Under the pieces are notes generated by a model. The model saw only the letters and a list, made by a program, of their open reading frames with translations. It ran no database searches and had not been told where the DNA came from. Shown here piece after piece: positions 9,621 to 64,000 of a stretch of DNA of 64,000 nucleotides. Positions within the stretch are counted from its first letter, which is position 1; each line of letters opens with the position of its first letter. The stretch comes from a virus. The translations under genes were made by a program, and so were the position numbers. The stretch is taken from the IMG/VR virus record IMGVR_UViG_3300045988_150084; one strand, 5' to 3'.

Positions 9621-9625
9621 CATGA

Positions 9626-9712
9626 TGGTGCGAAAGACGGGAATCGAACCCGTACAGTATTTCTACTGGGGGATTTTAAGTCCCCTGCGTCTGCCAGTTA
9701 CGCCACTCTCGC
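9626..9712 (-). tRNA. tRNA-Leu(TAA), type II
   Basis: Anticodon arm GGGGA-CTTAAAA-TCCCC, long variable arm, T-arm ACGGG-TTCGATT-CCCGT, CCA encoded. Confidence 0.8.
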
Positions 9713-15238: not shown

Positions 15239-15247
15239 CTTATTGCA

Positions 15248-15835: not shown

Positions 15836-15852
15836 CTTCTTCTCCCTTCCTC

Positions 15853-17757: not shown

Positions 17758-17781
17758 TTTATCACTTCTCCTCTGTCTATT

Positions 17782-20138: not shown

Positions 20139-20247
20139 AAAGTAGTATCTATTTATATTTGATAGTATAAGTTACTACTCTATGGGTAAAAAAAGATGTA
20201 AGTATTACACGAAAAGACGGCCTGTTATGACCGTCCACGGAATAGTA

Positions 20248-20961: not shown

Positions 20962-21136
20962 TTTGTTCTTCCTCCATCTTGAACTGAATATTAACCTTTG
21001 GCACATAGCGAGTACCGTGAGAATCAACGGCGTAAATCCTGATTGGAATACCGTGTTTTATACAGTTTTTGCAATAAGCTGTTGCTTCGTTTACTTCGTC
21101 CGTGAGCACTCCAAATTCTTCGTGGATAAACGTCAT
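20939..21136 (-). CDS. small hypothetical protein (contains the protospacer for CRISPR spacer 2)
   Basis: 65-aa ORF. Nucleotides 21054-21093 are the exact reverse complement of array spacer 2. Confidence 0.35.
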   Translation of the reverse strand: MTFIHEEFGVLTDEVNEATAYCKNCIKHGIPIRIYAVDSHGTRYVPKVNIQFKMEEEQNGRKKCS

Positions 21137-21284
21137 TCTTACGACCTCCTATGTGATAATACCAGTATAGCAGAGTTAGAGCTTTACGTCAATAAAAAAT
21201 TCATTTACCCAGTAATACTTTTCGGCAGACGTTCTCGTGGTAAATCAATAATAGCACTTTGTTCGATTAGTGTCAATCTTAACT

Positions 21285-22061: not shown

Positions 22062-22348
22062 GTTGTACCTCCATTTTTAATAAAAAAATAAGCGTCCAAC
22101 ACACCTTTTTGGTGCATCAGACGCTCTTGTTTCTTGAATCAGATGCTAGACTATGTTATAATAGTCGTAGATAGTTGATGAAACAGGTGTTGTCTATTTA
22201 TTTTGTTTCACCGACTTGCGTAGCTGAGTGGTGTGAAGATTACCAGCCGCGCTCGCTCTACTGGGTGGTGTAAAGGTAGACCAGTAAAGCCGCTTCTAAG
22301 TGACGCCAATCACTTGGGAGCATTTTTTTTGTTCAATTTTCAAGGAAA

Positions 22349-22369
22349 TGTGGATAACGCTGTGGATAA
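22349..22369. promoter_or_regulatory. two perfect DnaA boxes (TGTGGATAA x2, reverse complement of TTATCCACA)
   Basis: Direct sequence match at 22349-22357 and 22361-22369. A partial box lies at about 22404-22410. An A/T run is adjacent. Confidence 0.5.
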
Positions 22370-22468
22370 CTCGTGCTTCACAGATTGCTACCTACGTCTT
22401 ATATGATAACTCGCTAACCCTTATGTAGTCAACGCTTAAAAGCAAATATTTACACAAAAGGTTCGGTA

Positions 22469-22488
22469 TATTACTGAGTATTACTCAA
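22469..22488. repeat. two tandem 10-bp iterons (TATTACTGAG/TATTACTCAA), candidate parC/ParR operator
   Basis: Directly abuts the -35 of the parM promoter. Confidence 0.35.
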
Positions 22489-22500
22489 TGATATTTTTTC

Positions 22501-22529
22501 TTGACGTATCGCTTATAGTGTTATACAAT
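22501..22529 (+). promoter_or_regulatory. sigma-70-type promoter for parM (TTGACG-17 nt-TACAAT)
   Basis: Near-consensus hexamers with 17-nt spacing, 44 nt upstream of the parM start. Confidence 0.55.
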
Positions 22530-22572
22530 GTGAGCGTAGATGATTTTTGCTTATCGAGAAGGAGGAATTGCC

Positions 22573-23484
22573 ATGATTTCTATCGACGTAGGATTCGGTA
22601 ACACTAAGGTGTATGACGGCGAAACCTTAAACGTGTTCCCCTCTATCTATTACCGCGCCAAGGCAGCCGAAGCCGTGAACGACCCAAGAGATATGCTCCT
22701 TGAACTTGACGGTGAAAGGTATCATGTTGGTATCACAGCCCTGCATAAAGGTGGGGAGTCACAGATGGAGCGTCACAACCTCCTCCGTCACAAGCTCTTC
22801 ATTCTCTCTGCGATTTGCGCTACAACGAGAGGGGATTTCTCCGATAAGGTTCTTCTTGGTCTTCCGATTAGCGACATGGAGACGATGAAGGAATCTGTTG
22901 AAGGATTGAAAGGCGTATACCACGTTATTTTCAACGGAGAGACGCGAGAAATCAACATCACGGCTATTAAGGTATATCCCCAGTCAGAAGCCGTATACAA
23001 CCTCCTAGAGCGTCAGGACGAGAATATCAGAGACAAGGCAATCGGTATCATCGACGTGGGACAGAAAACAGTTGACCTCGCCTACTACAACTACGGCACG
23101 CTTGATGATGATAGGTGCGGTAGTCTCACAAAACTCGGTTGCAAGTCGGCATACCTTGACATCCAGAAAGCGCTTAATCGTGTCTGCGACATCGATACTG
23201 AGTGGTATCTGGTATCTAAGTTCTTGAACCGCGAAGCAATAGAAGAAGATAAGAATCGTGCGTTTGAGGACATGGCGCGTAAGATTCTGAGCGCAACCAG
23301 TAATCTTGGATGGAACTACCATGAACTCGATGCAGTATACCTTATCGGCGGCGGTAGTTCTTATGTTGAGCCGTTTGTAAAAGAGCATGTAAAGGTTCTT
23401 ACTGGAGAGAGCGAAAAAGTTATTATTCCGTCTAACCCAGTATTCGCGAATGTGAGGAGTTACTACGAGGGGGAATTGAAATGA
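22573..23484 (+). CDS. parM: actin-like ATPase ParM/StbA-family segregation protein
   Basis: Phosphate-1 motif ISIDVGFGNTK and GIIDVGQKTVDL, C-terminal YLIGGGS. Start reassigned to the ATG at 22573, which has RBS AGGAGG. Confidence 0.8.
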   Translation: MISIDVGFGNTKVYDGETLNVFPSIYYRAKAAEAVNDPRDMLLELDGERYHVGITALHKGGESQMERHNLLRHKLFILSAICATTRGDFSDKVLLGLPISDMETMKESVEGLKGVYHVIFNGETREINITAIKVYPQSEAVYNLLERQDENIRDKAIGIIDVGQKTVDLAYYNYGTLDDDRCGSLTKLGCKSAYLDIQKALNRVCDIDTEWYLVSKFLNREAIEEDKNRAFEDMARKILSATSNLGWNYHELDAVYLIGGGSSYVEPFVKEHVKVLTGESEKVIIPSNPVFANVRSYYEGELK

Positions 23485-23894
23485 GCAAGAGAGTCTCAGT
23501 AGTATTTCCTGGGCTTATCGGGGACTATGTGGAAAAACGCATGAACCAGCTCGGTCTTACTCCTAGTCAGTTCCTTCATATCATGGTTATCAGGGACTTA
23601 ATCAGACCGTTGACCATTGAAGAAGCTGGCATCTTGAGCATCGGCGTAGGTCGTATGAAGTCAGGCGGCAGTGCGGAACAGGTTATCGCTGGACTTGCCC
23701 CACTATTCGAGAGAGAAGGTTACTCCAAAAAACAGGAAGAGGAAGAACCTTTAGGAGACGATGACGTAAAGAAAGTGGTTAGCGACATCCTCTCCGAGCC
23801 AATCCCAGAACCGCCAAAGGTAGAAGAGCCAAAACAGACCGTAGAGAAACACCAAGACGAGCCTAAGATGGGGAATATGACAGGCTACATCTGA
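23481..23894 (+). CDS. parR: ParR-like DNA-binding adaptor (putative RHH N-terminus, acidic C-terminus)
   Basis: 137 aa, translationally coupled to parM. N-terminal basic and hydrophobic region. C-terminal E/D-rich tail. Confidence 0.5.
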   Translation: MSKRVSVVFPGLIGDYVEKRMNQLGLTPSQFLHIMVIRDLIRPLTIEEAGILSIGVGRMKSGGSAEQVIAGLAPLFEREGYSKKQEEEEPLGDDDVKKVVSDILSEPIPEPPKVEEPKQTVEKHQDEPKMGNMTGYI

Positions 23895-23912
23895 AAATAG
23901 GCAAAAAAATAA

Positions 23913-23939
23913 GGGGACTGCGAAAGCAGCCCTCTTTTT
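23913..23939. terminator. bidirectional terminator between convergent parR and the HTH gene
   Basis: GGGACTGC-GAAA-GCAGCCC hairpin with A-run and T-run flanks. Confidence 0.5.
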
Positions 23940-24384
23940 ATAGTTTATTTTTTCTTTTCATCGGATATAAAGCGAATACGGCTTTCTCAAGGTCAGACGC
24001 AAGGTTTTTCTCCGCTGCTTCTTTTTCCAGCCGTAATTTTTCCTCGATTTGTTTCTTCTTATAAGCGGCGTAACCCCTTACGAGATAGTCGCGCCCTTCT
24101 CTTGTGTGAATCCATTTTTCCACATCAGCAGGGAGTGTAACAAGTTGTTCAGAAACACTAGCTTCACCTAACAGCGTATCGACAGGGATATTCATGCCCT
24201 CTGCGGCTTTGATGATGTTTTTGAGATAGACACGGCTACCCTTCATCGCTTGTAGGTATTGTGGTTTCCAGCCAATGCTACGGCAAAACTCGGCGGCAGA
24301 GATTTTATGCTGCTTGGTATATCTCTTAATAGTCTCGAACAGATAATCTCCGCTAATGTGTGTTGACTTACTATTATTTACCAT
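23938..24384 (-). CDS. XRE-family HTH transcriptional regulator
   Basis: HTH region KISAAEFCRSIGWKPQYLQAMKG. Start moved to MVNNSK, which has RBS AAGGAGTG. Confidence 0.6.
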   Translation of the reverse strand: MVNNSKSTHISGDYLFETIKRYTKQHKISAAEFCRSIGWKPQYLQAMKGSRVYLKNIIKAAEGMNIPVDTLLGEASVSEQLVTLPADVEKWIHTREGRDYLVRGYAAYKKKQIEEKLRLEKEAAEKNLASDLEKAVFALYPMKRKNKL

Positions 24385-24614
24385 TCGAACACACTCCTTA
24401 CCAATAAATAATACAATGTGCAATCGCATGTTATCAGTACATATAATTTTTACTTTGTCCTAGTATAAAAAGCAACGAAATTTATTTATTCAAATATGAT
24501 AGTATGCTTTTCTTTCATAACTAGTTAGATAACATCGTAGAGCGTCACAAGACTCTATTTACATTATATTGAATAGCAGGAGAATCCGCAAGACCTAAAT
24601 CATGCTAGTTAATA

Positions 24615-27600
24615 TTAAATAATACTCCTAAATTTGTTGCCAACAACAGACATCCGATAGATTTTATTCGTCTCGATTGGTACATAAACACTATTGAACA
24701 TTACCATATCGTGCTGAGTTCCATCGGGACATTCCAGAGTAAAGAACATCATAGGCTTACCGTTTTTCTGTTTCCAATGTTTGATACGTCGCACAACACC
24801 GAGAACAATACGGACACGTTTGTCTTGCTCATCGGGAGCCTGATATTTACTTGTATCATAATCAGCGAAAATATCTTCAAAGGTCATGCCGAGCACTTCC
24901 AGCTCTCCAGCCTTGTAATCATAGTCTTCGTCGGTATTCTTAACCTCTTTGATTTTCTGTTCGATGTCCCAATACTTAGAGCTGTAATCAAGATACTTCT
25001 TATGAGCTTCTTTCTTCTTCTTCGTACCGTCTTTCGCTGTCTCATAGATAGCCTTATTCTTCTCGATTCGCTCTTTCACGGTAGAAAGCTGTCTGTTCAG
25101 CTTGTCAAGCGTGCCGCTCTGGTATACATCCTGCAAGAGTTCACTCCTGTCACCGAGGAAGTCAAGTGCTCCTGCTTTGATAAGATTTTCTACCTTGTCC
25201 TTTGGGAGTTTCTTATAGCTCTGATAGTCAAGAGGAACAGGAATATCGCCAATGCCAGAGATATAGTTAATAGCCATTCTGATAGTTTTATCGTCAACCA
25301 CTTCCCAATCACAGGTATGTGAACGCGCATCGGGAGGGAGAATCTTGATACCGTGCCGACGAGCGTCATTGACATATACTAGAAGGTCTTCCTGTTTGTC
25401 TCCGTTGTAGGCGTTGAGATAGGCACAAAGGAACTCAGCAGGGTAATGAGCCTTGAGGTATGCCGTCTGATAGCAAGTATAGCCGTAAGCCGCGCTGTGC
25501 GATTTGTTGAACTGATACGCCGCCGCATTGGACAACCATTCTGCCAACTTTTGAGCGACATCTTGACTTACACCACGTTTCTCGCAATCATTCACAAACT
25601 GAGGGACAAGTTTAGCCATCTCCTCTGGAATCTTCCTACCGATAGCACGACGAAACACATCTGCTTGACCAAGGTCATACCCTGCCATAGCCTGTACAAT
25701 CTGCATAGCCTGTTCCTGATAAAGCATGACACCATAGGTATCTTTCAAGCAATCCTCTACCCAAGGATGGATGTATGTAAACGGCTGTCCTTTTCTCCGA
25801 TTCGTAAACTCATCAACCATGCCGCTCTGAATAGTGCTAGGACGATACAATGCCACCAACGGAACAATATCGAACACATTTTGAGGTTTGATGTCTTGAA
25901 TGATTTTCCGCATACCACCAGACTCAATCTGAAAACATCCGAGAACATCATCATGGTTCAGCATATCGAAGGTAGCCGTATCTGTGTCAGGAAGGTTGTC
26001 TACGTCCACAGACGCGCCGTAACGTGCCTCCACCATCTTACAGGTGTTATCTATCACGTCAAGCGTTTTAATGCCCAGAACGTCCTCTTTGAGTAGTCCC
26101 ATGGCTTCGAGGTCGTGATACTCATAGGCACACACATAGTCTTCTCCCTGTTTCTCAATAGCACACCACTCCGTAGGGTCACTAGAAAAAAGCATGACAG
26201 CACTTGCATGACAGCCATAGTTTTGAATAATGCCAACATACTTCATCGCAAGGTCTTTCAAACGCTCATCGGTCTGTTCTTCAATGGTCTTAGGAAGATT
26301 GCGAATCGCAGAAGGTTCATAGCCAAGACTTCTAGCCGCTCTTTGAATTGCCGCACGCTCCCCCATCAGTCCAAAAGTGCGAACGTGATATACCTCGTGA
26401 TACTTGTCTACAAGATATTGGATAGCATCGCCGCGCCTACTGTTGGGAACATCCGTGTCAATATCTGCGCTCGAACTTCTTTTGTCGTGTGCAAACCTTT
26501 CAAAGATAAGCCCGTACTTGATAGGGTCAATGCGAGTAATGTCCATGAGGTAAGCAACAAGACAGCCACCGACACTACCACGTCCGATACCCGTCCTGAT
26601 ACCGAGGTTGTGACATCCTCTTACAAAGTCCTCTGTCATAAGCATGTAGTTCGTATAGTCAATCTTATCGAGAACCTTGATTTCATGGTCAATCTGCGCT
26701 TTGTACTTGGGATATTCTGACTCAGGAACATGACCGACAATCTTCTTTTTGAACCCATCCGCTACTAGCTTGCACATCTGAGAGAGGGGCGTTTCGCCGT
26801 CAGGAACTTCAAAGACAGGATAATGTTTTTCTCCAAAAGGAATCTCTACCTGCTCACACTTGTCCGCTACACGCTCAGTTTCCTCGATTAGCTCATCAGC
26901 AATAGTGCCGTCAAGGTAGCTCAGAGCATCGCGTGCTTGCTGTTCGGAATGGATATAGTAATCGTCAGTCTGATAGTAAGTGCTGTCTTCGTCGATACCG
27001 AGCCATTTCCTATGTGTGTCCGCTTCATCTTTGTTGACATAGTGAGAGTCCTCAGTAACATAAGCAGAGATACCTAAGTCCGTGGCGAGGTCAAGCATGT
27101 TCTGGTTATACTTCTTTTGCTCTTCATCTGTACCGAGCTGCAATTCAACATAAAAATCCTCACCAAAAACATCTTGGAAGGTCTTAGCACGGTCATAGGC
27201 AAGGTCATAGTCCCACTCGTCACCGTTTCGCGGATTGAGAAGACCACCCATGCAAGCAGAGGAAATAATCAGACCTTCTTTATGAGCGATAATATCCTCG
27301 GTAGTGAGCCGCATTGTGTAGAAGAAATTATCAGGTTTATTTCCCTTGTCACCATATCCAATCGTTGCTAATCGGAGAAGATTATGATAGCCTGTCTCGT
27401 TCTTAGCAAGTAAGATAATATGGCAACTAGCCTTTCTGTCTTTGACGTAATAGTTAGGAACCCAGTACCCCTCCATACCAAAGATAAACTTGATAGATGT
27501 ACCGTGCTCCTTGTTGTACTTCTTTGTCTCTTTGTACGCCTCCATAAGACCGCTCGTCGTGCCGTGGTCTGTCAGCGCCCAAGCAGTTTGTCCAAGCTCT

Positions 27601-39796: not shown

Positions 39797-40728
39797 TCAC
39801 CGTCCTTTTTCATAGGAGCACCAACAACAACGAGGTGCATAGTGGAGGAACTTGCTGTCTGAGGAATCATAGGAGCACCAAAAAGGTACGTCTTTCCCTT
39901 ATCAACACCGAGTAATTCACTTTTTTCCTTACCGCTGAAATAGCAAACAGCTCTCTTGAAATAGAACTCATTGCTCTCTCCGAAAAGGTAAGAATACGGC
40001 TTCAACACGACATGGTTTGCTGCCCCATTGTCCGAAGTAAGAGTCATTTGACACTTATATCCAACAATGTTCTGCATTTCTCGAATATCTGTAATAGTAA
40101 GCTCACTAGGCATATACACATTATAGATATTTCCGTGGTTAATGAACTGGAGAGGAGAGAAATCACCGTAGCGGTTATACAGAGCCATCAGCCTATCTCG
40201 CTCTTTCTTTTTTCCATTCATATTGAAGGTGAAAGTGTGGATAGGATTGTTCCATGTTTTTTCTCTAGCGTCAGCAAGCGTTTCGAGGATATTTGTATTC
40301 CAATCGTCTGTATCTTCAATTTCTCCTCGAATCGGAAAATCAAACTCGGCAAATTCTGGAAGTTCTTGATATAAAACCTTACTTCTATCAATCTGCAACT
40401 TAATTTCAGCACTATAACCGACGATGTTCTGCATCTCACGAATCTGTTTGAATGTTATTTTTTCTGCAAAACAACACGTTTCTTTTGTTCCATTATAGTT
40501 GAAATAAAACTTATCGAGAAGTCCGTGATGTCTGTCATAGAAGTCGCGAAGATACCCGAGCATATTTTCCTTACCATACACAACAAAAGATAGCATTTTC
40601 TTTGCTCTTGCTCTCCTGCGATTATGGACAACCATACCGTTATAGAACTGAATTTCTTTGCTTTCCCATGAGTAAATATTTTGTACTTCCCCACGAGGGA
40701 CAATATTTAATACTTCAATATCACTCAT
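39793..40728 (-). CDS. minor tail protein
   Basis: 311-aa ORF. Confidence 0.4.
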   Translation of the reverse strand: MSDIEVLNIVPRGEVQNIYSWESKEIQFYNGMVVHNRRRARAKKMLSFVVYGKENMLGYLRDFYDRHHGLLDKFYFNYNGTKETCCFAEKITFKQIREMQNIVGYSAEIKLQIDRSKVLYQELPEFAEFDFPIRGEIEDTDDWNTNILETLADAREKTWNNPIHTFTFNMNGKKKERDRLMALYNRYGDFSPLQFINHGNIYNVYMPSELTITDIREMQNIVGYKCQMTLTSDNGAANHVVLKPYSYLFGESNEFYFKRAVCYFSGKEKSELLGVDKGKTYLFGAPMIPQTASSSTMHLVVVGAPMKKDGD

Positions 40729-41126
40729 CGTTTATAACCTGCCTTGAATCCTTTTTGCCAGAAATCTCTATGGTAAATTGTGCTTGATGTTTCTCCTTCG
40801 ATTGTGGGAACTTGCATAGCTAAAACCTTACCATATCCAAGATAGATACCAAGGTGGGAGTCACCGAGAACGTCAAAGAGAATAATATCTCCGAATTGCA
40901 GTTTCTCGTAATCATTCTCTCTTGTGAAATGGCCATTGAGATACCTTGCTAATCGGAAAGGCTCTCTCTTCTCCCAGTCCTTTGTAATAGGCCGTCCATC
41001 GTCAAATGTCTGCTCCCAGCCATGCTCTTTGTAAAACAAGGAACACAGACCAAGGCAGTCACATCCGTCGAAGTCACGACCGTTGAATTTATGAAGAATA
41101 CCAATGTATTTATCTATATTTTCCAT
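40725..41126 (-). CDS. NlpC/P60-domain tail protein (lambda gpK-like)
   Basis: Cys-His signature CDCLGLC...GDIILFDV...HLGIYLG. Confidence 0.5.
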   Translation of the reverse strand: MENIDKYIGILHKFNGRDFDGCDCLGLCSLFYKEHGWEQTFDDGRPITKDWEKREPFRLARYLNGHFTRENDYEKLQFGDIILFDVLGDSHLGIYLGYGKVLAMQVPTIEGETSSTIYHRDFWQKGFKAGYKR

Positions 41127-41209: not shown

Positions 41210-44200
41210 TTATCTGAAACCGTGACGCTGTTGATTGCCCATGATTCTCTGGAAAGCACGCGGGTTCTTTTGAATTGCTCTCATAACACTTGCACTATCT
41301 GCTTGCGTATTGAGAACAACCATATTCCCAGAACCGTTATCTTTACTCCCCATAGCGGCTAACATATCGTTCTGTTGTTGCATAAGCTGTTCCAGACGTT
41401 TGTTGCTGCTTGTCTTAATCACGGTGTTATTACGGTTGAACTTGCGGTAATTCTCCACAGTTTTAGGACTCATAACAGGCTCATAGGACTCACCAAGGTC
41501 ACCGCCGTCCGCGTATCGCTTCATACCAGCAATAGCTTCTGGATTGGCATTGAGCGTATCGAGGAAGGAAACTCCGACCTTATCCACCGTGGATTTCTTG
41601 ATGATATACTCACCATTGGATGTGCGGATAAACTGCCCTCGATTAGCAAGGTAGGTAAGAATGGAATCACTTGTACCTGTTCCTGCTCCTCCGATAAGAC
41701 CTGTTGTGTCACCGCCAGTAGCGAACTTAGGAATCAATCCACCAGCAGCCATTGGGAAGAAATTCCTTGTCATCATCGTCCCATTCAAGGTCATAACCGA
41801 ACCAGACAAAATATCCATGACCGAAGTATTTGCTGTTGTTGTAGCCGTTCCTGTAACCTTTGCGCTAGTGTCTAATGCCGTTTTAGCCGTGCCGAGGATT
41901 GTCTCTTTTGTGAGAAGTCTAGTTGCATTTGACATGGCATTTGTGACTGCTGAAGCACCCTTAACAGTAGTAGAATTGATTGCCAGCTTTTGTCCGAGGT
42001 CTGAGAACGCTTTTGTATAGTCTGCCTTACCGCCGAATTGGTTTGTTGCACCGTATCGAGAGGAAGGAATCCTATCCATGACGTTTCCGCTCCAGCCGCT
42101 CATAAAGCCGCCTACTCTGCCGATATTGTTGACAAAGTTTCTCCTCTGCACCCTTCTCGTGATGTTCTCACCGCTAAGAATGTCCTTGAGTCCCCATTTC
42201 TGCATCTGAACCTTGAGGATTTGTTGGAGAGCGAGCTTTGCAATATCACTCCAGAGTGCTTTCCACGACTCTTTGAACGACTTTCCTTCGAGCAGCACAT
42301 CGGAGAATATAGAATGGACACCATTTTCGATGATGTCGGCAAGTTGGTCTGTCACAGCATTAAGAGATTTCTTTACATCGTCAATGGATTTCTGAACCTC
42401 TGTCAAGTCCTTCTTATATTGCTGTGTAGCTTCGCCGCCGTGTTCGCGGTTTTGGTCAATCCTATCGGTAAGTTCATCTACATGCTTAGAAACCTTTTGA
42501 ATCTCGGCATTGAGTGTCTTATCTTCGCTTGTGAGGGTCTTGCGTTTCTCGATAAGCAAATCAAGGCGTTTCTGTTCGGCATCACGTTCTGTCTCCCAGC
42601 CGCTACGCTTCTCGTAGTCGCTTGACTCTGCCTTAGATAACTGAGAATGAATCCAGTCGTATTTCTTTTGCAGGATGTCAAGTTTCTGTGCATAGAACCG
42701 CATATTCTCCATATAGGACTCATTGTCGGTCATGCCGTTTACTTTGTACTCGTGTGCGTTGGAAAGACTCTCAAGCTGTGCGTCCAGACGTTCCGTAGGA
42801 GACATAGAGCCATAAACCTTACGGTCGCGCTCCGCTTTGTCTTCTACATACTTCGATTCGAGGGAATCTAGTTGACTACGAGACTTGATGATAGAGTTAA
42901 TAGCCTTGGTGAAATCACCCTTGCCCTCTTTATCAAACTTCTTCGCAATCTCTTGAATCTCAGAATCTGGAAGTGTCTTGATACCTTCGATGGACAGATT
43001 ATTCTCACTCAGGAAACCCTTGAAGCCACTGAACTTATCGGAATAGTCCTTGAGGAAGTCTTCGCCGTTCTGTTGGATTGCTCTCCAGTAACTAAGCGTA
43101 GTCTCCGTAGACTTGAGTTTAGCTTCTTCGTTCTCGGCAATCTTCTTATAGATTTCAGCCGTATAGCCACTCAGTTTAGCTTCGGTTTCAAGGCGTTTCT
43201 GTTCCCTCTCATAGCGCTTCTGGTCAGTCTCGTACCGATAAGCAGCTTCTTCGATACCGTTTCTATGGAACGCATTTTCACCACGGTATTTCTCCCAACG
43301 GTCAACAGACTCGCTCGAACTAATCGAAGGAGAGCCATATTTAACACCGTTAGCTTGAGCAAGTTCTTTGATGTCTACACGACCGAGAACAGCTCCGAAA
43401 TACTGTTGCGCTTCTTCCATTGTTCCATGATGAACGCCGCCGCTACTGTTCCGTGCGATATACCCACCGTTGCCGTCATAGATACCTACATGCTTATTCC
43501 AGTTGATGATGTCACCAGCATTGAGAGGAGCTTCACCAGCGTGATATGCACTTCCTGCCTGTTCCATAAGCGTGTCGCCGTTCGGACTATTGACAGATGT
43601 GATACCGTGCTTGTTCATCATGTAGGAAACCCAAGACGAACATTGACTCTCCCATGTAGAGTTATCATCAAAACCTGCATCTATGCCGCGCCATTGTTCG
43701 CCAGCATGAGCGTCAGCTTCTTTGACCATGGCTTCACCGATGTTCTCGCCAATGGTTTGTGTTGCCGTGTTCCAACCAGACTCATTAGCGTATTGGTCAA
43801 TAGAACGAGAGTAATTATATCCATCTTCGTCCTCGGGCCAAGCATTAGTGTGACCGACATTATACCAATCCGTAGCGGTTTTAGCGTCATCGTAGCGCAT
43901 ACCGTTATAAGCGTCACCGCGAATGTATGTCTTAGCTAATTCATCGATGAGGTCTGCCTCGTCTTTGAAACTTCCCATATAGCCGCCGATGTGAGCGTTT
44001 GTAGTAAACTCAGTAACGTTAGGAGTTTCAGACATAAATTGGCCATACATCATATTAGGAGTGATATAGCGGCCTGTTGTGTCTTGGATTTCTTTCGACA
44101 CCCTTACCGCAAGTTCAGCAAGATATGGATTTGTGAAGGAACTGTAATCATACCCACCAGCATTAAGCCGAGAACCTTCCGTCATGCGATGTTCATCGTT

Positions 44201-47200
44201 TCGGGAATAGTCCCTAGAATACTTCGTACTGTTGTACTTCTTATCAAATTCCTCGATATAGTCAGGAAGAACCTTGTCTAGTTGCTCATCGGAGAGGAAA
44301 TTGCCATAGAGTTTCTTCCAAATCTCACCCTCGGATAACCCCTGTGAAGCAAGGTTACCAAACTTTTCGAGGAGCTTATAAGCAGAATCAAATGGGTCAG
44401 AACCGCCAGTAGCAAACAGGTCGCTGATACCAGAGAAGTCTGTATTCTTAGCACCCTTGCCATAGAACAGGTTCAGAAGACTAAACAAGGAAGATTCTTT
44501 CACGCCATACTTGGAAAAATCACCGCGAGACATCATATCTTTGACTGTGGCGATAGCCTGTTGCTGTTCGTCAGAGTAGTTTATATACTCTTTCGGTTCT
44601 TTCTTCTCATGGCCAGATGAATCCCTTCCAGAACCAGAACCACCACGCCCAGAGCCGAAATTCTCAGAATCCTTGCCTTCGTTGTTGCGTCCCTCTGTAA
44701 TGTCTTTGGACTCATAAGGAGTAACCTTTTGGAGTCCTTCAATCGCTTCTTGCGCTTTTTTGTTCTCTTCGTCTAGGTAGCCTTGAATATCTTCTAACGC
44801 TTTTCCTTTAACTTCACTTTGGTCTTCTGTTACCCAGTCAAGGTGTCTCTGGATATTATCTATCTGTGCTTCTTTGATTTTTTTAAGCACGGTGTCTAAA
44901 AGACCGTCCCCAAGGCTTTCTTGCTCCTCTTTAAGTGATTCAATAGATTGTTTGTCTACTTCAATCGCTTGCGCATCCATGTTGTATCTAAATTGATAGA
45001 ACATAGCGTATGCTTTTTGAAGGATATTTAACCCATCGAGCTGTGAGGTTGTCCATTTACCAAAGTTTTGAATGGATTTTTCCAACCTATCTCTTTCTTT
45101 ATTCGTCCATTCAACTTGATTGAGATAATATTGATAGAGAGAAGTGTTTGCTTCTTTTAGTTTTTCTTCTTTTGCATTTGTCGCAGTAATATAATTATCT
45201 TTTTCAGCATTATATGCTTCTGTTGTGTAACCAGCTTGCTTGATTCTTTCTGCTGCATCTGCGCCAAACACATCTGTCAAATGTTGGTCAATGTCGATTA
45301 GCTTACTTTTTGAAGTTGCAAGTTCTTCTTCTGAGAGTTTCCCAGATTCAATAGCTTCTTTCAGTTCTTGTGCTTTTTCTATGCTGCTATCTGTCATTTC
45401 GATGTTCTTTTTACGAGCATCAACCTCTTTAGAAAGCGTATCAACTTCTGTTTCCAGACTTTCCTTTACCTTATCAGTAGCTTCACTAAAATCGAGAAAA
45501 AGAGGAACAACAACTGCAAGAAGGGTAATTATAACTCCGATAGGCCCACCAAAAGCAGAAAAGGCAATATTGAGAACGCGAGCTGCCATAGAAGCAGCAG
45601 TCATCCCTGCGGCCGCAAGTCTGCCTGCGTCAGCCATAGCAATCATTTTAACTCTAGCGATTTCGGTACTTACTGCGTTCGCTTTAGCGTATCTATCAGC
45701 TATCCTGAGTTGCTGTGCATAAGACATCTGAGCCAGTTGTACCGCTTTCGTAGACGTAACAACCTTTTTGTCAGTAGTGATGAGACGTTCAAGCTCTGCT
45801 CTATATTCTTTTGTTTGTCTTATTGAATTAACGGTAGCAGAACTTTTCGAATCGGATTTATTTATTGACGTAGCCGCTGGGATATTCATCACCTGAGTCA
45901 TGTATGAAGACCTGCCAGACGCATAAGCAGCTTGAAGGTTTCCAGCAAGAGAGGAGATGATACCTGCATTTTTTTGTGCAGCACCGACTTCCCACATCGC
46001 AGTAGTTTTACCAGCTAAAGAAGCAATTTGTCTGAGGATAGGAGGTAATAACTTGTATGCCGCAACAATAGCAAGGATACCCTTCGCGAACTGATAAGCG
46101 TGAGATGTTCCTTTTTGACTTTTTTCAAGGAGACTATTTAAGAGATTGAGAATCCACTTAATGTCATTAACAAGACCGTTGTTGCCGTTCGACATGAAGA
46201 GCTTTGCGATATTCGCTTTCAGAGTCTCTACCTTACGAGCAACCGTGTCCATCTGGAGAGCTAACTGTTGGTCTGTGAATCCAGCGGAATCCTTGGTCAG
46301 CTCGATAGTACGTTTCAACTCGTTGTAGTTGTTCAAGAGAGCGATGGTCTTGGATGATTGCCACTTACCACCAGAGATAGCAAGCATAAAATCAGACAAG
46401 GACTTAGAATCAAGGTTTGTGTGTTGCAGTCCTTTGGAAATATCAAGAATCAGGTCTTCAACAGGACGTAACTCTTTCTTTCCGTTTGCGCCAATCTTAT
46501 AAACCTCAATGCCGAATTTTTGCATAGCCTTGACAGCCTTATCTGACTGAATCGAGGCAAACAAGGATTTCAGCATTGTACCGATTTCATTACCACTCTT
46601 AGCCGTGGTACGGACACCTGTTGCGATGAGTGCGTTTAAGAAACCAAAGGAAACACCAGCGGCGTTCGCGGCAGCTCCTGATTGCTTAACACCTTCTGTC
46701 AAATCCTGCGCCGAAGCACCAGATGTATGAGCAAGTTTCGTCCACACATCGAGGATATGAGTAGAACGTGCCATCAATAGGTTACTGTCCTCTGTCTGCA
46801 TATTGAACTGGGAGAGTGCCGACTCAAGACCAAGTACAGCGTCCTTCATCTCAAAGTTATCTGTGGTAGCCATCTTAGCCGCTTGCGCCGTCAGAATTTC
46901 AGTATTCTTAGCGCCCACGTCAGCGTCACCGCCGCCTTGGCCATACAAACGACCGACAGACCTTGCCGCTTCGAGGACATTATCAGCAGACTGTCCGAAT
47001 TGAGCACCGATAGAAGCAAACTTTGAGAACTCTCCGTTCATCGCCGCTTGTCCTTCTTCTACCTTCGGCAACACCTGTGCGATACCAGCCATAGCAAGCT
47101 CGTACTTAGAAACGTCAGATACCACATCGGAGGGGAAACTGATAATATGATTCTCAATAGAACTACCGATTGCCCAGTTCGCAGATTCTCTAGCTCTCCT

Positions 47201-49939
47201 GAGGATGTTCTCTATATTAAGCGCATGACGAGGAGCTTTAGAAATTTCCTCATTGAATCGCTCTGCCTGACGGTTGAGAAGTCTGAGTTCGGTTCTTGCT
47301 CTCTCAAAACCAATCTTATCAGTAATAGAATTTGTCTTTTGGAACTGTAAGTAGAGGTCTTGAGCGTTCTTACGCGCTTCGGAGAGCCGTGCATTGAACG
47401 ATTCGGAGATAGAGAGGGCTTCAACCTTGTTATCCTTGAGAGGAGCTGGCTTCTTGACGTTTACGCCCTTTAGCATGGACTCGTCAACGCCTACGGCCTT
47501 TCCCTCTTCGCCAAGTTGCTTGAGTGCCTTTGCAATATCCTCGATACGGTTCTTCTCCGTGATATAGCTGTTCTGAGTATAGACAAGCCCAGCCTTACCA
47601 GTATGCTGGGAGATTCTTCTCTTTACCTTCTCAAGAGCTTTAAGCTGATTAGCAATCTGCTCCTGCCGAGCGGCTTCTTCTGCATCGGCTTTCTTCTGAG
47701 CAGCTTGACGAGCTTTCTGGATAGCAAGGCGTGTCTTTTGTTCCGCTTGGAGGACTTTCTCTCTTTCTTGTGCGGATTTCTCTGCTTGCTTAGTTTCCTC
47801 TTTTTGAGCCTTGGCTTCTTCCTCCATTTGCTTCTTGAGGAGGGCAGAACTTTTCTTTGCGGCCTGTTCCTGTTGCTTAATTTCCTCATCGAAAAGGTTA
47901 GTGACTTTCATACCACTACGCGCTTTTTCAATGTCTCTCAAGCTCATGGGCTGATTCTGTACGTTCTTTACATAGTCAGCGTATTTTCCCTCTGAGAATG
48001 GATTTGTTGTAGAAAGGTCACCTTTAAGTTCTGAAAGAACCTTGCGTAAAGCAATAATTCTCTGCCGAGCTTGTTCCCACTTGCGTTCATTGAGAATCGT
48101 GCCGTTATCTCTGCTGTTCCATCCGCTGTTGACGAGCTTATCATGCTCTTTCTGAGCGGCTTCAAGACGCTTTGCAGGTTCTTCGCCAAGTTTCCTACTT
48201 ACTGACCGTTTGAGTTCCTCGAAATGCCTACGAAGGGTTTCAAGCGTTGTGAGATACTTTCTAGCATCCCTGTCAGCGCGATTGATACCTTGAGCGAAAT
48301 CACCGTTGCCGAGTTGCTGGAGGAGCGCTTCTGCCTGTGTGATTCTTGCGAGGGCGCGGGCATATTTGCCAAGGGATTCGTCCTGCTCTGCTCCCTTTTT
48401 GAGAAGTTGTACAAGGTCATTCTGTTGCTTAGAAACATCAACCTTTGTGTCGTTGGTTTTCTTTCCGCTTGCATAAGCCTTGCGAAGTTCTTCCTCTTTA
48501 GCGCGGATTTGCGAATCGAGGGTCTTTACTTCTGGTTTCTCAGGAGCTTTCTTCTCTTTGGATGATTCTTTTTTCTCTGCTTCTGCCTGTGCCTTACGCT
48601 CCGCGGCTTTTTCAACAACATCCTTACCGAATTTCTTGAGTGTATCACGAGCCTCGTTTACAACAGCGAAAGCATTGGCAATAGAGGAAAAGTCGATATG
48701 TGCCGCGTTCCAGAGGTATTCATACATAGAGCGCGTATCGGCAGCAAGAGCATTGATAGCGGAGACAGGGAGAGATTTACCTACGTTTTCCCATGCGCGA
48801 GAAAGACGTTCTGTATAGTCCTTGATGTCCTCATTCGCGTCCGTACTCTTGACAGACGGTTTCTTCGCTTTAGGAGCGGTAGTTCCCTTGACGTTCAGCC
48901 TCGGCGGTTCGGGAATCTTGATGTTCTTAAAGCTCTCGTTTATCTCGTGTGCCAGCTTCTTCGTCGATTCGACCATAGCGACTGTCTTATCGTTTGCATT
49001 GACCAGACTCGAATTAACTTTTGTGTCAAGAACGTTAGCAATTTCCAGCCATTTCTTTTTGATACCGTCGAGAAGCCCAGCGGCTTCGGCATACTCTTCC
49101 AGAATAGCCTTAACTGCCTTTTCGGAGAAACTATCATCTGTTGTAAGAGCTTCTTTAGCGTTCTTCTCTGTCTTAGCCTTTGCCTTTGCAGCTTCTTTTT
49201 CCCTTTCCGCTTCTCTTTTCGCTTGAGCCGCCTTTGCAGCAGAAAGAAGAGTATACTCATTCCTAAGAGCGCGGATTTCCTCTCTCTGTCCTTCTACGGA
49301 GAGGTCTTTGGGAAGTCCCTTGACTTTATTAAGTCCTGAGATAAAGTTGCCCAAATCCATCTTGACTAGATTATTGCCAGCAAGAGAATGTAACTCCTTT
49401 TTGATATTAGCTACGTTTTTACTGACGATACCAGAATAAGTTCTTACATTGTCAGCGGCTTTCTCTAGGTTAATACCATCAACAGCATTTGTCCTGATTT
49501 TCTCTGCTGATGAAGCAATCTCATTGATAGCCGTTTTGATTGACTTGGATTGTGCTAGAAACTTATCTAAAGCATCATCTTGAGCCTTTGCTGTCTCTTC
49601 TGTTGCCTTTTTTACGCCTTTTGCGGCATCGATTTGCTCTTTAGACGCATTGACACTCTCTTGCAGCTTCTTGTTCACGTCTCCAATCTCTTTGGTCATG
49701 GTCGTTAAGCCAAGGGATTTAGAGATTTTTTCAAGGTTTCGTGCTAGTTCGAGAGCAGAGCCACCAGTCTCATTTAGGGAAGAGATGATAGACTTCCTGT
49801 ATTCATCCTTAAAATCGGTAAACTTGATGTCGTTGATGGAATTGAGCGCATCTTTTACTTTTTCGAGATTAGTAAGAGACTTGCCAATTTCAACTTCCAA
49901 GTTATATGAGATTTTCGTAGACTTAGAATCGTCTGGCAT
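41210..49939 (-). CDS. tail tape measure protein (2909 aa) with embedded CHAP peptidase and glycosidase-like domains
   Basis: Very long, A/K/E-rich alpha-helical protein. TM/GxxxG stretch. CHAP-like domain (QCSSWV...HVGIYDG) encoded around 43.4-43.8 kb. Confidence 0.85.
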   Translation of the reverse strand: MPDDSKSTKISYNLEVEIGKSLTNLEKVKDALNSINDIKFTDFKDEYRKSIISSLNETGGSALELARNLEKISKSLGLTTMTKEIGDVNKKLQESVNASKEQIDAAKGVKKATEETAKAQDDALDKFLAQSKSIKTAINEIASSAEKIRTNAVDGINLEKAADNVRTYSGIVSKNVANIKKELHSLAGNNLVKMDLGNFISGLNKVKGLPKDLSVEGQREEIRALRNEYTLLSAAKAAQAKREAEREKEAAKAKAKTEKNAKEALTTDDSFSEKAVKAILEEYAEAAGLLDGIKKKWLEIANVLDTKVNSSLVNANDKTVAMVESTKKLAHEINESFKNIKIPEPPRLNVKGTTAPKAKKPSVKSTDANEDIKDYTERLSRAWENVGKSLPVSAINALAADTRSMYEYLWNAAHIDFSSIANAFAVVNEARDTLKKFGKDVVEKAAERKAQAEAEKKESSKEKKAPEKPEVKTLDSQIRAKEEELRKAYASGKKTNDTKVDVSKQQNDLVQLLKKGAEQDESLGKYARALARITQAEALLQQLGNGDFAQGINRADRDARKYLTTLETLRRHFEELKRSVSRKLGEEPAKRLEAAQKEHDKLVNSGWNSRDNGTILNERKWEQARQRIIALRKVLSELKGDLSTTNPFSEGKYADYVKNVQNQPMSLRDIEKARSGMKVTNLFDEEIKQQEQAAKKSSALLKKQMEEEAKAQKEETKQAEKSAQEREKVLQAEQKTRLAIQKARQAAQKKADAEEAARQEQIANQLKALEKVKRRISQHTGKAGLVYTQNSYITEKNRIEDIAKALKQLGEEGKAVGVDESMLKGVNVKKPAPLKDNKVEALSISESFNARLSEARKNAQDLYLQFQKTNSITDKIGFERARTELRLLNRQAERFNEEISKAPRHALNIENILRRARESANWAIGSSIENHIISFPSDVVSDVSKYELAMAGIAQVLPKVEEGQAAMNGEFSKFASIGAQFGQSADNVLEAARSVGRLYGQGGGDADVGAKNTEILTAQAAKMATTDNFEMKDAVLGLESALSQFNMQTEDSNLLMARSTHILDVWTKLAHTSGASAQDLTEGVKQSGAAANAAGVSFGFLNALIATGVRTTAKSGNEIGTMLKSLFASIQSDKAVKAMQKFGIEVYKIGANGKKELRPVEDLILDISKGLQHTNLDSKSLSDFMLAISGGKWQSSKTIALLNNYNELKRTIELTKDSAGFTDQQLALQMDTVARKVETLKANIAKLFMSNGNNGLVNDIKWILNLLNSLLEKSQKGTSHAYQFAKGILAIVAAYKLLPPILRQIASLAGKTTAMWEVGAAQKNAGIISSLAGNLQAAYASGRSSYMTQVMNIPAATSINKSDSKSSATVNSIRQTKEYRAELERLITTDKKVVTSTKAVQLAQMSYAQQLRIADRYAKANAVSTEIARVKMIAMADAGRLAAAGMTAASMAARVLNIAFSAFGGPIGVIITLLAVVVPLFLDFSEATDKVKESLETEVDTLSKEVDARKKNIEMTDSSIEKAQELKEAIESGKLSEEELATSKSKLIDIDQHLTDVFGADAAERIKQAGYTTEAYNAEKDNYITATNAKEEKLKEANTSLYQYYLNQVEWTNKERDRLEKSIQNFGKWTTSQLDGLNILQKAYAMFYQFRYNMDAQAIEVDKQSIESLKEEQESLGDGLLDTVLKKIKEAQIDNIQRHLDWVTEDQSEVKGKALEDIQGYLDEENKKAQEAIEGLQKVTPYESKDITEGRNNEGKDSENFGSGRGGSGSGRDSSGHEKKEPKEYINYSDEQQQAIATVKDMMSRGDFSKYGVKESSLFSLLNLFYGKGAKNTDFSGISDLFATGGSDPFDSAYKLLEKFGNLASQGLSEGEIWKKLYGNFLSDEQLDKVLPDYIEEFDKKYNSTKYSRDYSRNDEHRMTEGSRLNAGGYDYSSFTNPYLAELAVRVSKEIQDTTGRYITPNMMYGQFMSETPNVTEFTTNAHIGGYMGSFKDEADLIDELAKTYIRGDAYNGMRYDDAKTATDWYNVGHTNAWPEDEDGYNYSRSIDQYANESGWNTATQTIGENIGEAMVKEADAHAGEQWRGIDAGFDDNSTWESQCSSWVSYMMNKHGITSVNSPNGDTLMEQAGSAYHAGEAPLNAGDIINWNKHVGIYDGNGGYIARNSSGGVHHGTMEEAQQYFGAVLGRVDIKELAQANGVKYGSPSISSSESVDRWEKYRGENAFHRNGIEEAAYRYETDQKRYEREQKRLETEAKLSGYTAEIYKKIAENEEAKLKSTETTLSYWRAIQQNGEDFLKDYSDKFSGFKGFLSENNLSIEGIKTLPDSEIQEIAKKFDKEGKGDFTKAINSIIKSRSQLDSLESKYVEDKAERDRKVYGSMSPTERLDAQLESLSNAHEYKVNGMTDNESYMENMRFYAQKLDILQKKYDWIHSQLSKAESSDYEKRSGWETERDAEQKRLDLLIEKRKTLTSEDKTLNAEIQKVSKHVDELTDRIDQNREHGGEATQQYKKDLTEVQKSIDDVKKSLNAVTDQLADIIENGVHSIFSDVLLEGKSFKESWKALWSDIAKLALQQILKVQMQKWGLKDILSGENITRRVQRRNFVNNIGRVGGFMSGWSGNVMDRIPSSRYGATNQFGGKADYTKAFSDLGQKLAINSTTVKGASAVTNAMSNATRLLTKETILGTAKTALDTSAKVTGTATTTANTSVMDILSGSVMTLNGTMMTRNFFPMAAGGLIPKFATGGDTTGLIGGAGTGTSDSILTYLANRGQFIRTSNGEYIIKKSTVDKVGVSFLDTLNANPEAIAGMKRYADGGDLGESYEPVMSPKTVENYRKFNRNNTVIKTSSNKRLEQLMQQQNDMLAAMGSKDNGSGNMVVLNTQADSASVMRAIQKNPRAFQRIMGNQQRHGFR

Positions 49940-61828: not shown

Positions 61829-63278
61829 ACACGCTCAAATACATTAAAGTTACATTAGAATTATATTATAGAAAGCTATAAGAGTTAACATGATGTAATG
61901 CTACCCAGTAACACTCAATCATATTGCCTTGACATCCCTTTTGCCATGCGCCCTCGGCGGCTCTGAAATTGTCCTCCCTGAGTGATACTTGACAATAGCG
62001 CGTAACACCGTGAGTAACGCCAAAAACTGCTGCCTATGTACACCCTCAACAGACACCATCTTCCTCGATTTGTAAACTAAAAAACGCAAAGTGCTTGACG
62101 ATGTATACGAGAATAAAGCGCCCCCTAGCTGGATTAAGTGTTTTTTGCAGGTTTGCCGAAAATTGCCCCATCTAGCCCCAATCCTTTAGTTAGTTGAAGA
62201 GCCTGTGAAGCCTTATACCACAAGGGCTGGCGGCACTTCCACGTTGCATAATTGATATTATAAAACGATTGAGAATAATTTCCAATAACGTGTATTAATC
62301 AAGTTGTCTGACAATTTCTTATTGATAGATTTTCTCATTTACTTTGACCTTTTGTCCTATATCATTTCTGCATATTATGCGCGCGTATTATGCTATTTTT
62401 GTATGTACGCCTCCAGTGGACACGTTACTAAAATATACCCCTCTAGGGTATACCAAAGTCAAACTTAATTTTACTTCTATTTTATCCAATTCAATTTAGC
62501 TAAATCGTTTTTATCCTTAGTAGCATCAAGGCTTTTCGCATATCCAGTCCCATTTAGTAATATATCTTGTTACATAATCATACCCGATATCATTAAGTCT
62601 TATTCAATCATACCTAGTAATACCCTTGCATATCGGAGAAGTGTGTTTTAGCAAAGTAAAGTAAATAGTATTCATACTTGATTGCTATGTTTTAGTAAAG
62701 TAAAGAGACAGGAAAATAGTCCTATTTAATTCTCTCAACCCTTGTAATTACTAGCTTCATCGCCCTTGTACTCTCTCGATGCACATTTGTTTTGCCTTAT
62801 CAAATTATTATTGTCTGACAATTTATTTTTCTTGTTGCCCGCCAGCCCTTGTAATTACTAGCTTCATCACTGTTTTCTACCTTTTTCTAATAAAACAAAA
62901 TATCCATGCTCATATATCAACGCCCCGCCAGCCCACTAACTACGCCGCCTGATAGCCTTTTCGATTAGCAAAAAATCATCACTTTCTCTCATATAAAAAT
63001 ACACGCGAGGAAATCCCTTATTGATAATATTTCTCAAAGGAATTAAAAATAAAAAGACTTGCACGTTATTCGTCGCTTGCTATAACAAAGTTGCAATCGG
63101 GAACGGCCCGAAAGGGAAATGAACCGAAAGCAATCCATCCGACGCCCGCGGGGGGGCCGAACAAGACGCCCCGCTTAAAAGAGAAAGAAAGGAGATGAAA
63201 AGGCCGCTATCAGGCCCAGCACGCCCGCCGCAGTCAACTTCTATTAATAGTTCTTTGAAAATTTCATATTGCAGGGGG

Positions 63279-63463
63279 GTTTCCGTCCCCTTACGGGGAT
63301 TTTGTTTTTCAACGAAGAAGAGTTTTATTCGACCGTCGCGCCCGCTGATGAAAGTTTCCGTCCCCTTACGGGGATTTTGTTTTTCAACTAAACGAAGCAA
63401 CAGCTTATTGCAAAAACTGTATAAAACAGTTTCCGTCCCCTTACGGGGATTTTGTTTTTCAAC
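63279..63463 (+). CRISPR. CRISPR-like mini-array: three 35-bp repeats and two 40-bp spacers
   Basis: Repeats GTTTCCGTCCCCTTACGGGGATTTTGTTTTTCAAC at 63279-63313, 63354-63388 and 63429-63463 (all identical, partly palindromic). Spacers at 63314-63353 and 63389-63428. An AT-rich leader-like stretch lies at 63241-63278. No cas genes in the window. Confidence 0.8.
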
Positions 63464-63584
63464 ACGCTCGTCGGGAATAGAGTTACGCGAGTACCCTGCT
63501 ATATGGATTAATATTGACCCGTAGACTCCGAGAACAGGGGACGCGGCCGGCGAGGGCCTCTAACGTGACAGGTTAGTAGGTACG

Positions 63585-63839
63585 GTGAACCACACTCAAG
63601 CCGGTTTTAAGAAGTACCGAAGGCCTTCTTGCGTCTCACACGACAACCGACTCGGGGAGACAGGCCGGAGGGGCGTTAAGTTGCGCCCGCTTGTTGGCAG
63701 CACGGTATTACTTTATGTAGTATCGCCGGAGGTCGAGCAGTTCAATAAGGCCGAGTATGACGTCAAGGCGGGCCGCGTTGATAATCTCGGCGTGTTCTGT
63801 CAGCAGTTCATGCTGGCCGGTATGAAGGAGGTGAAGTAA
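63585..63839 (+). CDS. hypothetical protein (GTG start) in the high-GC region
   Basis: 84-aa ORF. Codon usage is GC-rich, unlike the phage. Confidence 0.3.
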   Translation: MNHTQAGFKKYRRPSCVSHDNRLGETGRRGVKLRPLVGSTVLLYVVSPEVEQFNKAEYDVKAGRVDNLGVFCQQFMLAGMKEVK

Positions 63840-63841: not shown

Positions 63842-64000
63842 ATGTTCTGGAAAGCGTTCCACTCCTACTACTACACGGAGGACGAGGAAGAACGTGCCGA
63901 ACTGTTGCAGGACTTCCCCGCCGCCGTGCCGATGACGGAAGAAGAGTTTTATTCGACCGTCGTGCCCGCTGATGAAATCATGGTGACGGGGAACTACCTT
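63842..64000 (+). CDS. hypothetical protein, partial (contains the near-match to spacer 1)
   Basis: RBS GGAGGTG before the ATG. Runs off the window end. Nucleotides 63938-63977 match spacer 1 at 39/40. Confidence 0.4.
   Translation, partial: MFWKAFHSYYYTEDEEERAELLQDFPAAVPMTEEEFYSTVVPADEIMVTGNYL

Follow-up and report, generated by a model that had tools for sequence, protein, structure and literature searches.

Viruses of several kinds carry miniature clustered regularly interspaced short palindromic repeat (CRISPR) arrays that consist of one or two spacers, lack cas genes and have the same repeats as their host (PMC6858448, PMC7099407, PMC11656645). The spacers of such mini-arrays match closely related viruses, often in genes beside the array, at sites whose orthologue in the carrier is mutated, and the mini-arrays of phages have been found without leaders (PMC6858448, PMC7099407, PMC11656645). 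No other case shows more clearly how viruses turn host adaptive immunity on each other, and in the validated examples a match to the carrier is avoided. Here we analyze a stretch of 64,000 nucleotides (nt), hereafter the window, from virus record IMGVR_UViG_3300045988_150084, which near its right end carries what is, with near certainty, a phage-borne type III-A mini-array. A previous inspection of the letters alone (the sequence-only reading) had drawn attention to a near-match between one spacer of this array and a neighboring gene. That near-match belongs to a known class of element; the unusual twist lies in the type III-A repeats, in a second spacer that matches the carrier's own genome perfectly, and in the conserved leader RNA that the array replaces.

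In this array, rightly taken for CRISPR in the sequence-only reading, a 35-nt repeat (GTTTCCGTCCCCTTACGGGGATTTTGTTTTTCAAC on the plus strand) occurs in three identical copies that separate two 40-nt spacers. No exact copy is expected by chance, and no further copy occurs in the 64 kb at up to 3 mismatches. Read in the sense of a CRISPR RNA (crRNA), the repeat folds into a hairpin, after which comes an 8-nt tag, ACGGAAAC, and the Rfam model CRISPR-DR18 gives a weak, below-threshold match on the minus strand. The type III-A repeat of S. thermophilus ends in GGGGACGGAAAC, and we take the ending of the phage repeat to resemble the type III-A repeats of S. thermophilus and S. epidermidis. The repeat core is present in long arrays of metagenome-assembled genomes (MAGs) of Selenomonas and Selenomonadaceae, and the complete repeat is identical at 35/35 positions to that of a 33-copy array in the Selenomonas MAG CAKPXP010000007.1. 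This host array adjoins cas1, cas2, cas10/csm1, csm2, csm3 and csm4 (E = 4e-211 to 7e-19 for the Cas10/Csm1, Csm2, Csm3 and Csm4 matches), which identifies the host system as type III-A (Csm). Spacer 21 of the same MAG (sp21) matches the phage family over 25/25 positions, with a further match across a 3-nt indel; its target, at 8903-8927 of the sister phage L015 described below, is in plus sense and lies immediately left of the array site. This match links the Selenomonas host to the phage family.

The host loci also supply the direction in which the array should be read. In the Selenomonas array the degenerate terminal repeat is the one beside cas1, and in two related host arrays (L003 and L005) a leader promoter of consensus type, TTGACA-17-TAAAAT, stands 41 nt from the repeat at the end opposite the degenerate one. 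It follows that the plus strand of the window has to be reverse-complemented to give the crRNA sense, which would make spacer 1 leader-distal; its earlier description as leader-proximal was probably wrong, and neither flank of the phage array has any similarity to a host-like leader. Neither spacer was found among those of the two host MAG arrays, of which sp21 alone hits the phage family. Public collections gave no match to the repeat core, the spacer 1 core or the conserved flank motif in viral_contigs, nor to the spacer 1 core in metagenome_contigs.

Spacer 1 agrees on the same strand with a segment of the neighboring gene at 39/40 positions, and none of 100 shuffles gave any match at 3 or fewer mismatches. 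The sole difference, a C at 63339 against a T at 63963 (spacer position 26), and the target flanks, ...GATGACG on one side and TCATGG... on the other, were correctly reported in the sequence-only reading; the distance, given there as 550 bp, is 584 bp from the end of the spacer to the start of the target and 474 bp from the end of the array. In type III orientation the mismatch falls at crRNA position +15 and places a G opposite a U, a G:U wobble. The 3′ flank of the target, TCATGGTG, matches the anti-tag GTTTCCGT at 1/8 positions. The partial open reading frame (ORF) that holds the target had been taken for a gene, and rightly, as it is a complete 62-aa gene in contig L010, which was recovered by exact-protein look-ups and is 99.7-100% identical to the window. 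An exhaustive HMMER search of 1.8 billion representative proteins returned only one true homologue of the 62-aa protein, and no Pfam or PHROG family matched the target proteins of either spacer.

A comparison with related loci yielded a sister phage, L015, whose identity to the window is 99.5% over the structural genes and over the integrase-NrdD region; judging by the record name, it appears to come from the same cohort as the window's probable source contig. L015 has no copy of the repeat, and its positions 10097-10136 match spacer 1 at 40/40. Since the 62-aa ORF is conserved in this array-less sister, the possibility that the target is a duplicated remnant of an array, raised as a caveat to the original observation, is refuted. 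The differing base is nonsynonymous, L015 encoding Ala where the carrier has Val. The two alleles of the gene differ at 10/189 nt, nine of them within the first 26 nt and the tenth in the protospacer, and carrier and sister share about 91% identity in the DNA that adjoins the gene; one difference in 40 nt is thus no more than background divergence.

The sequence-only reading did not include the match of spacer 2, which is perfect (40/40), lies on the minus strand of the same genome and has a 3′ flank, CGGTATTC, that agrees with the anti-tag at 1/8 positions. The match is also perfect in 10/10 contigs that carry this allele. There are 30 close variants of the target protein, and the allele seen most often differs from the spacer at 11/40 positions. 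Spacer 2 is thus specific to the allele group of the carrier itself, to which a relative with no more than 95.5% identity to the window also belongs. Both spacers, as written on the array plus strand, are the sense strand of their targets, and crRNAs made from the minus strand would therefore pair with the target mRNAs, as type III requires. Both targets thus combine the two properties on which type III-A recognition depends, a transcript complementary to the crRNA and a flank not complementary to the tag. Both protospacers also lie shortly downstream of promoters predicted with a position-weight-matrix (PWM) scan, for which the 99th percentile of the window is 13.8 (Table 1). These distances fit the hotspot of type III-A adaptation, which favors DNA just downstream of early promoters (PMC13575424). 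Spacer 1 fits the description of virus-borne mini-arrays point by point: the array is in a viral genome, it has two spacers and host-identical repeats, no cas gene was found with it, and the target is in a related virus. Matches to cas families were absent among the roughly 40 window ORFs scanned and among the precomputed Pfam hits of L010 and a second contig, L020, a search that was not exhaustive for small ORFs.

Table 1. Features of the mini-array, its targets and their surroundings (window coordinates)
Feature	Position	Strand	Remarks
CRISPR repeat 1	63279-63313	-	35 nt; crRNA sense GTTGAAAAACAAAATCCCCGTAAGGGGACGGAAAC
Spacer 1	63314-63353	-	40 nt; plus-strand text is the sense strand of its target
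CRISPR repeat 2	63354-63388	-	exact copy
Spacer 2	63389-63428	-	40 nt; sole spacer in the variant array of L010
CRISPR repeat 3	63429-63463	-	exact copy; would be first repeat in crRNA sense
Carrier's near-protospacer for spacer 1	63938-63977	+	39/40
Acidic early ORF, first 53 of 62 codons, cut at window end	63842-64000	+	ATG at 63842 after ribosome-binding site AGGAGG
Promoter-like site TTGGCA-18-TAGTAT	63694-63723	+	215 nt upstream of spacer 1 protospacer; conserved in L015
Perfect spacer 2 protospacer	21054-21093	-	40/40
65-aa early ORF with spacer 2 target	20939-21136	-	first gene of Rad52-like / primase-helicase operon
Strong sigma-70-like promoter TTGACG-17-TATACT	21164-21192	-	71 nt upstream of spacer 2 protospacer; PWM 15.6
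Lineage-specific GC-/purine-rich leader segment	63094-63278	+	between shared promoter region and array
84-aa ORF	63585-63839	+	probably the C-terminal remnant of a 192-aa gene

The site at which the array is found is occupied by something else in the relatives. Identity between the window and L015 breaks exactly at 63093, and the flanks of the array align with those of relatives whose structured RNA of about 105 nt is missing in the window lineage. All eight distinct array-less relatives (8/8) have this conserved, rod-like RNA at the place of the array, in the early leader (L039-L047, reverse complement, approximately 12.1-12.5 kb; equivalent to window 63279-63470). Its structure comprises 36 pairs, 12 of which show compensatory changes; pair cells are canonical in 96.5% of cases on the plus strand (49 cells being G:U) as against 80.9% on the minus strand, and 0/500 shuffles reach the observed value. 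Rfam contains no family that matches the structured RNA or the leader regions. On these alignments, the mini-array replaces a conserved plus-strand structured leader RNA in the window lineage. A 9-mer in the relatives' leader RNA, TTTCCGTCC, is similar to the end of the repeat and was considered as a degenerate repeat; its local score reaches only the 95th percentile of shuffles, and it was not used as evidence.

The neighborhood has undergone another change in the same lineage. A 192-aa gene that is intact in nine array-less relatives, including L015 (9423-10001), has lost about 640 bp between two GAGCAG microhomologies, a deletion that could represent escape from host type III spacers. We also observed a 109-aa ORF (63195-63524, plus strand) that runs across the array and translates the repeat as VSVPLRGFCFST three times; it is not a called gene in L010 and is almost certainly spurious.

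The array is not an assembly artefact, as it recurs in at least five independent assemblies and exists in a variant with spacer 2 only. Four assemblies besides the window (L011-L014) have it with an identical spacer 1 and the same C/T difference, and the variant, in L010, is reduced to repeat-spacer 2-repeat while the spacer 1 target still reads T. A TerL identical to that of the window is found in 69 contigs of the collection index and in 136 blocks of the contig look-up. Among ten distinct early-region variants with this TerL, the repeats are confined to the L010 contig and a perfect target of spacer 1 to the L015 contig; one further variant carries a homologue of the target with 8/40 mismatches, and in the remaining seven there is no spacer 1 match within 8 mismatches. 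The array carriers themselves are near-clonal, at 99.7-100% identity. Two trivial origins were rejected. An assembly chimera through a shared 40-mer is at odds with junctions that lie outside the repeats and recur across samples and pipelines (judged from contig-naming styles), and a host chromosomal array beside a prophage is at odds with a gene order that closes on itself and with two flanks and two targets that are all phage DNA. A match of the repeat core in a Lewinella MAG (L002) proved to be a lone terminator-like hairpin and was rejected as CRISPR. Among the host arrays, that of a Selenomonadaceae MAG (L003, 2768-2868) is minimal: it has two repeats, of which one is degenerate and the other intact, a single spacer and a leader promoter of the normal kind, and it may be a decayed or interrupted locus.

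The suspicion that the target gene belongs to a mobile element was well founded, since the whole window is phage DNA, with structural, replication and lysis genes throughout (profile scans of about 40 ORFs). Structural and lysis ORFs include the terminase (TerL), portal, SU10-type capsid, tape-measure-like, tail and baseplate proteins and a GH25 lysin; those for replication and metabolism include DnaE, primase-helicase, Rad52-like, NrdD/NrdG, PhoH, dUTPase and methylase, and a tyrosine recombinase (integrase) and a ParM-like actin are also encoded. In L010, early genes continue for 3.7 kb past the right end of the window and lead directly into the integrase found at its left end. The gene order thus closes on itself, giving a genome of about 67.7 kb that is circular or circularly permuted, with the array internal to the phage; one family member exists as a 67,712-bp contig. 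GenBank phages gave no blastn match to the window, and the closest cultured phages have a TerL less than 40% identical. The carrier is a Selenomonadaceae phage of the gut, probably temperate or plasmid-like.

Several further features of this genome may be recorded here. Contig L020 (ERZ28569052 scaffold_103), the probable source contig of the window, is at 100,552 bp longer than the closed genome and may be a concatemer-like assembly or hold something else. Five phage tRNA genes (Thr-TGT, Tyr-GTA, Gln-TTG, Lys-TTT, Leu-TAA) are clustered at 9108-9712 on the minus strand. An ORF of 2909 aa (41210-49939, minus strand) combines a minor-tail (tape measure) domain with an NlpC/P60 peptidase domain, and a second, separate NlpC/P60 ORF lies at 40725-41126. 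The stretch at 62100-63060 is AT-rich and geneless over about 1 kb, contains the direct repeats CAACCCTTGTAATTACTAGCTTCATC, TTGTCTGACAATTT and TGTTTTAGYAAAGTAAAG, each present twice, and adjoins a gene for a 100-aa winged-helix protein whose matches to replication initiators are weak; together with the ParM-like gene at 22540-23484, this stretch suggests the origin or partition region of a plasmid-like prophage. The replication module (14939-27136) seems to be separately assembled in several samples, with contig breaks near 14.9 and 27.1-27.4 kb, and occurs in alleles that are 95.5% identical, which points to modular exchange within the family.

We tentatively favor the reading that the element is a host-derived, cas-less mini-array that serves competition between phages and is tolerated as long as the carrier's own targets are silent. 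In this reading both spacers are genuine type III-style memories of this phage family, pieces of sense strand taken shortly downstream of early promoters. In a cell with the resident phage, the array would be read on the minus strand, a host Cas6 (assumed here and, like Csm5 and Csm6, lying outside the host DNA examined) would cut the RNA into crRNAs bearing the ACGGAAAC tag, and host Csm complexes would load them. When an incoming sister phage transcribed its early genes, Csm would detect the transcripts and type III immunity would fire, the outcome being superinfection exclusion at the host's expense. Self-tolerance would follow from the need of type III for target transcription, the carrier's targets being silent in the resident state. 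Type III-A systems are known to tolerate silent prophage targets, at some cost (PMC5754349). The tolerance would not come from the one-base difference at spacer 1, which is a +15 wobble, and spacer 2 matches the carrier perfectly. In S. epidermidis, type III-A targeting is still allowed with up to 6 mismatches (PMC5754349), and the positions at which single mismatches substantially lower cyclic-oligoadenylate synthesis in vitro are +1 to +7 (PMC9704408), so that a wobble at +15 should not protect the carrier.

A number of observations weigh against this account. Spacer 2 matches the carrier perfectly and the commonest family allele with 11/40 mismatches; were the array expressed, its effect on the carrier would be no milder than on most competitors, and in a Csm-positive host it would block the carrier's own lytic growth or induction. 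Leaky prophage transcription makes type III-A tolerance expensive (PMC5754349), and it is two genes, the integrase and the ParM-like gene, that suggest a lysogenic carrier. Transcription of the site poses a further difficulty. The plus-strand structured RNA of the relatives and the plus-sense target of sp21 indicate that the site is transcribed rightward, antisense to the crRNA direction, and each repeat on the plus strand resembles an intrinsic terminator (hairpin and U-tract). To the right of the array no convincing minus-strand promoter was found, the best PWM score there being 8.3 against a background median of 7.2 and against 16.7 in the host leaders of L003 and L005. Finally, the array is rare (1/10 early-region variants with identical TerL), and because its carriers are nearly clonal its persistence says little about selection.

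Many of the same observations would be expected if the locus were an inert fragment of a host array (repeat-spacer 1-repeat-spacer 2-repeat), unexpressed and without function, the main alternative, which we consider somewhat unlikely. It would hold two host memories against the phage family, captured by illegitimate or repeat-mediated recombination that replaced the leader RNA element, and the spacer 1 difference would be ordinary allele divergence. Such an origin agrees with the absence of a host leader and of a credible minus-strand promoter, with a perfect spacer 2 self-match that would be harmful if the array were expressed, with the near-clonality of the carriers, and with a region that is rearranging, as the microhomology deletion of the 192-aa gene in the same lineage shows. 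Sense orientation and promoter-proximal origin would be fully explained by selection in the host (PMC13575424), and phage mini-arrays are thought to stem from recombination with host arrays (PMC6858448, PMC7099407). Set against this, none of the three repeats has diverged from the host's (35/35 in each case), many samples show the configuration, spacer 1 fits the published signature of competition exactly, and neither spacer occurs in the two available host arrays. Quite unlikely, in our estimate, is an RNA anti-CRISPR, in which minus-strand repeat RNA sequesters Cas6 or Csm in the manner of a Racr, or plus-strand RNA acts as an antisense decoy. For the decoy, an early rightward promoter would produce an RNA with copies of the spacer 1 and spacer 2 targets, each then followed by a perfect anti-tag, GUUUCCGU, and host Csm with the same spacers would bind it, read "self" and stay silent. 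The family site is indeed transcribed on the plus strand, as the base-pairing statistics of the structured RNA and the sense of the sp21 target indicate, promoter-like sites with PWM scores of 11.0 and 6.6 are found on that strand a short way upstream of the array, and both spacers reproduce, in sense, early transcripts of the phage itself, with an exact anti-tag after each. Phage-encoded repeat RNAs are, moreover, established inhibitors of CRISPR (PMC10651486, PMC11656645). Yet the plus-strand repeat terminators should stop transcription before spacer 1 or spacer 2, Racrs are solitary repeats without spacers, and a decoy would be useful only against hosts with exactly these spacers, of which the two host arrays have none. 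To our knowledge no anti-tag decoy has been described. The specific proposal that antisense array RNA is a decoy anti-CRISPR built from captured host memory, in place of the structured leader RNA, we regard as improbable.

The sequence-only reading had offered three explanations of its own. The first two, self-acquisition and an escape or tolerance mutation, can be taken together: the spacer would have been acquired from the carrier's gene when the base was still C, and the target would later have changed to T. In viral mini-arrays a point mutation in the carrier's copy of the locus is the rule (PMC6858448), and mismatches can lower the cost of incomplete type III-A prophage tolerance (PMC5754349). 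Beyond the first 26 nt of the gene, furthermore, the sole allele difference falls in the protospacer. A single difference would land in 40/163 nt by chance about 25% of the time, however, and this standard interpretation is weak here: the L015 allele is exact amid background divergence, the mismatch is a +15 G:U wobble outside the sensitive +1 to +7 region (PMC9704408) in a type of system that still targets with up to 6 mismatches in S. epidermidis (PMC5754349), the spacer 2 target is unmutated, and the spacer 2-only variant L010 also has the T. We rate it slightly below the RNA anti-CRISPR in probability. In the third, the array would be a crRNA-like autoregulator akin to CreA/CreT or to crRNA-like RNAs (crlRNAs) and Cracrs, which represses the adjacent gene or host cas genes through imperfect pairing. 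All that speaks for it is that array and target are close together and match almost perfectly, and we find it very improbable. Neither a cas nor a toxin gene is found in the vicinity, both spacers have the full length of 40 nt and the repeats between which they lie are perfect, and the targets are inside ORFs and not at promoters. Along the window, 42 kb separate the array from the second target (about 25 kb if the circular genome is followed in the shorter direction). The best matches of the spacers to the host cas loci, at 21-24/40, equal the shuffled null. We know of no type III system in which such repression occurs without immune activation.

If the mini-array is active, a resident phage would be using host Csm as a sequence-blind immunity against its own kind, protected only by the silence of its genes. 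In type III systems, single mismatches are not protective and targeting depends on transcription, and one of the spacers here is a perfect self-match. If it is inactive, the locus is a clean natural record of a host-array fragment captured by the phage that it targets. In either case the carrier and L015, 99.5% identical in the shared modules compared, with and without the array, provide a matched pair for experiments.

Comparison with described systems places the locus among mini-arrays and sets it apart from other array-like elements. CreA/CreTA, crlRNAs and viral Cracrs (bioRxiv 10.1101/2024.10.29.618823) are likewise small array-like units outside a normal array, and Cracrs are phage-borne. 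They pair partially with host cas or toxin promoters, whereas the pairing here is full-length and within the phage's own ORFs; the host forms of CreA and crlRNAs are found in or beside a cas locus and usually have degenerate repeats, unlike the perfect repeats of this array, which has no cas genes beside it. Racrs, or solitary repeat units (Camara-Wilpert et al. 2023, PMC10651486), share with it a phage-encoded copy of the host repeat without cas genes, but are single repeats without functional spacers, in contrast to three perfect repeats and two full-length spacers with targets. The tolerance of prophages by type III-A systems (PMC5754349) offers a parallel in which a cell puts up with a spacer that matches its resident phage perfectly or nearly so, as long as the target remains untranscribed, and in which mismatches cut the cost with immunity kept; the spacers in that work are in the host array and those described here on the phage.

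Most similar in organization are the mini-arrays of the Saccharolobus portogloboviruses SPV1 and SPV2 (Medvedeva et al. 2019, PMC6858448), which are intergenic, have 1-2 spacers and host-type repeats without cas genes, and target a close relative in the same population, in genes near the array, their own site being point-mutated. The SPV arrays differ from the phage array in having archaeal hosts and host-like leaders and promoters, and their self sites are mutated or deleted such that self-targeting is prevented. The carrier's spacer 1 site, by comparison, differs only by the +15 wobble, in a mismatch-tolerant type III setting, and its spacer 2 site matches at 40/40 and has no anti-tag. The mini-arrays without leaders that phages and prophages carry (Faure et al. 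2019, in the summaries of PMC7099407, PMC6858448 and PMC11656645) share host-identical repeats, 1-2 spacers and the lack of a leader with the array described here and, according to these summaries, target related phages, including genes adjacent to the array, and are presumed to originate by recombination with host arrays. Where these reviews expect spacers that are similar, and not identical, to the carrier's own sequence, spacer 2 of the present array is identical to it.

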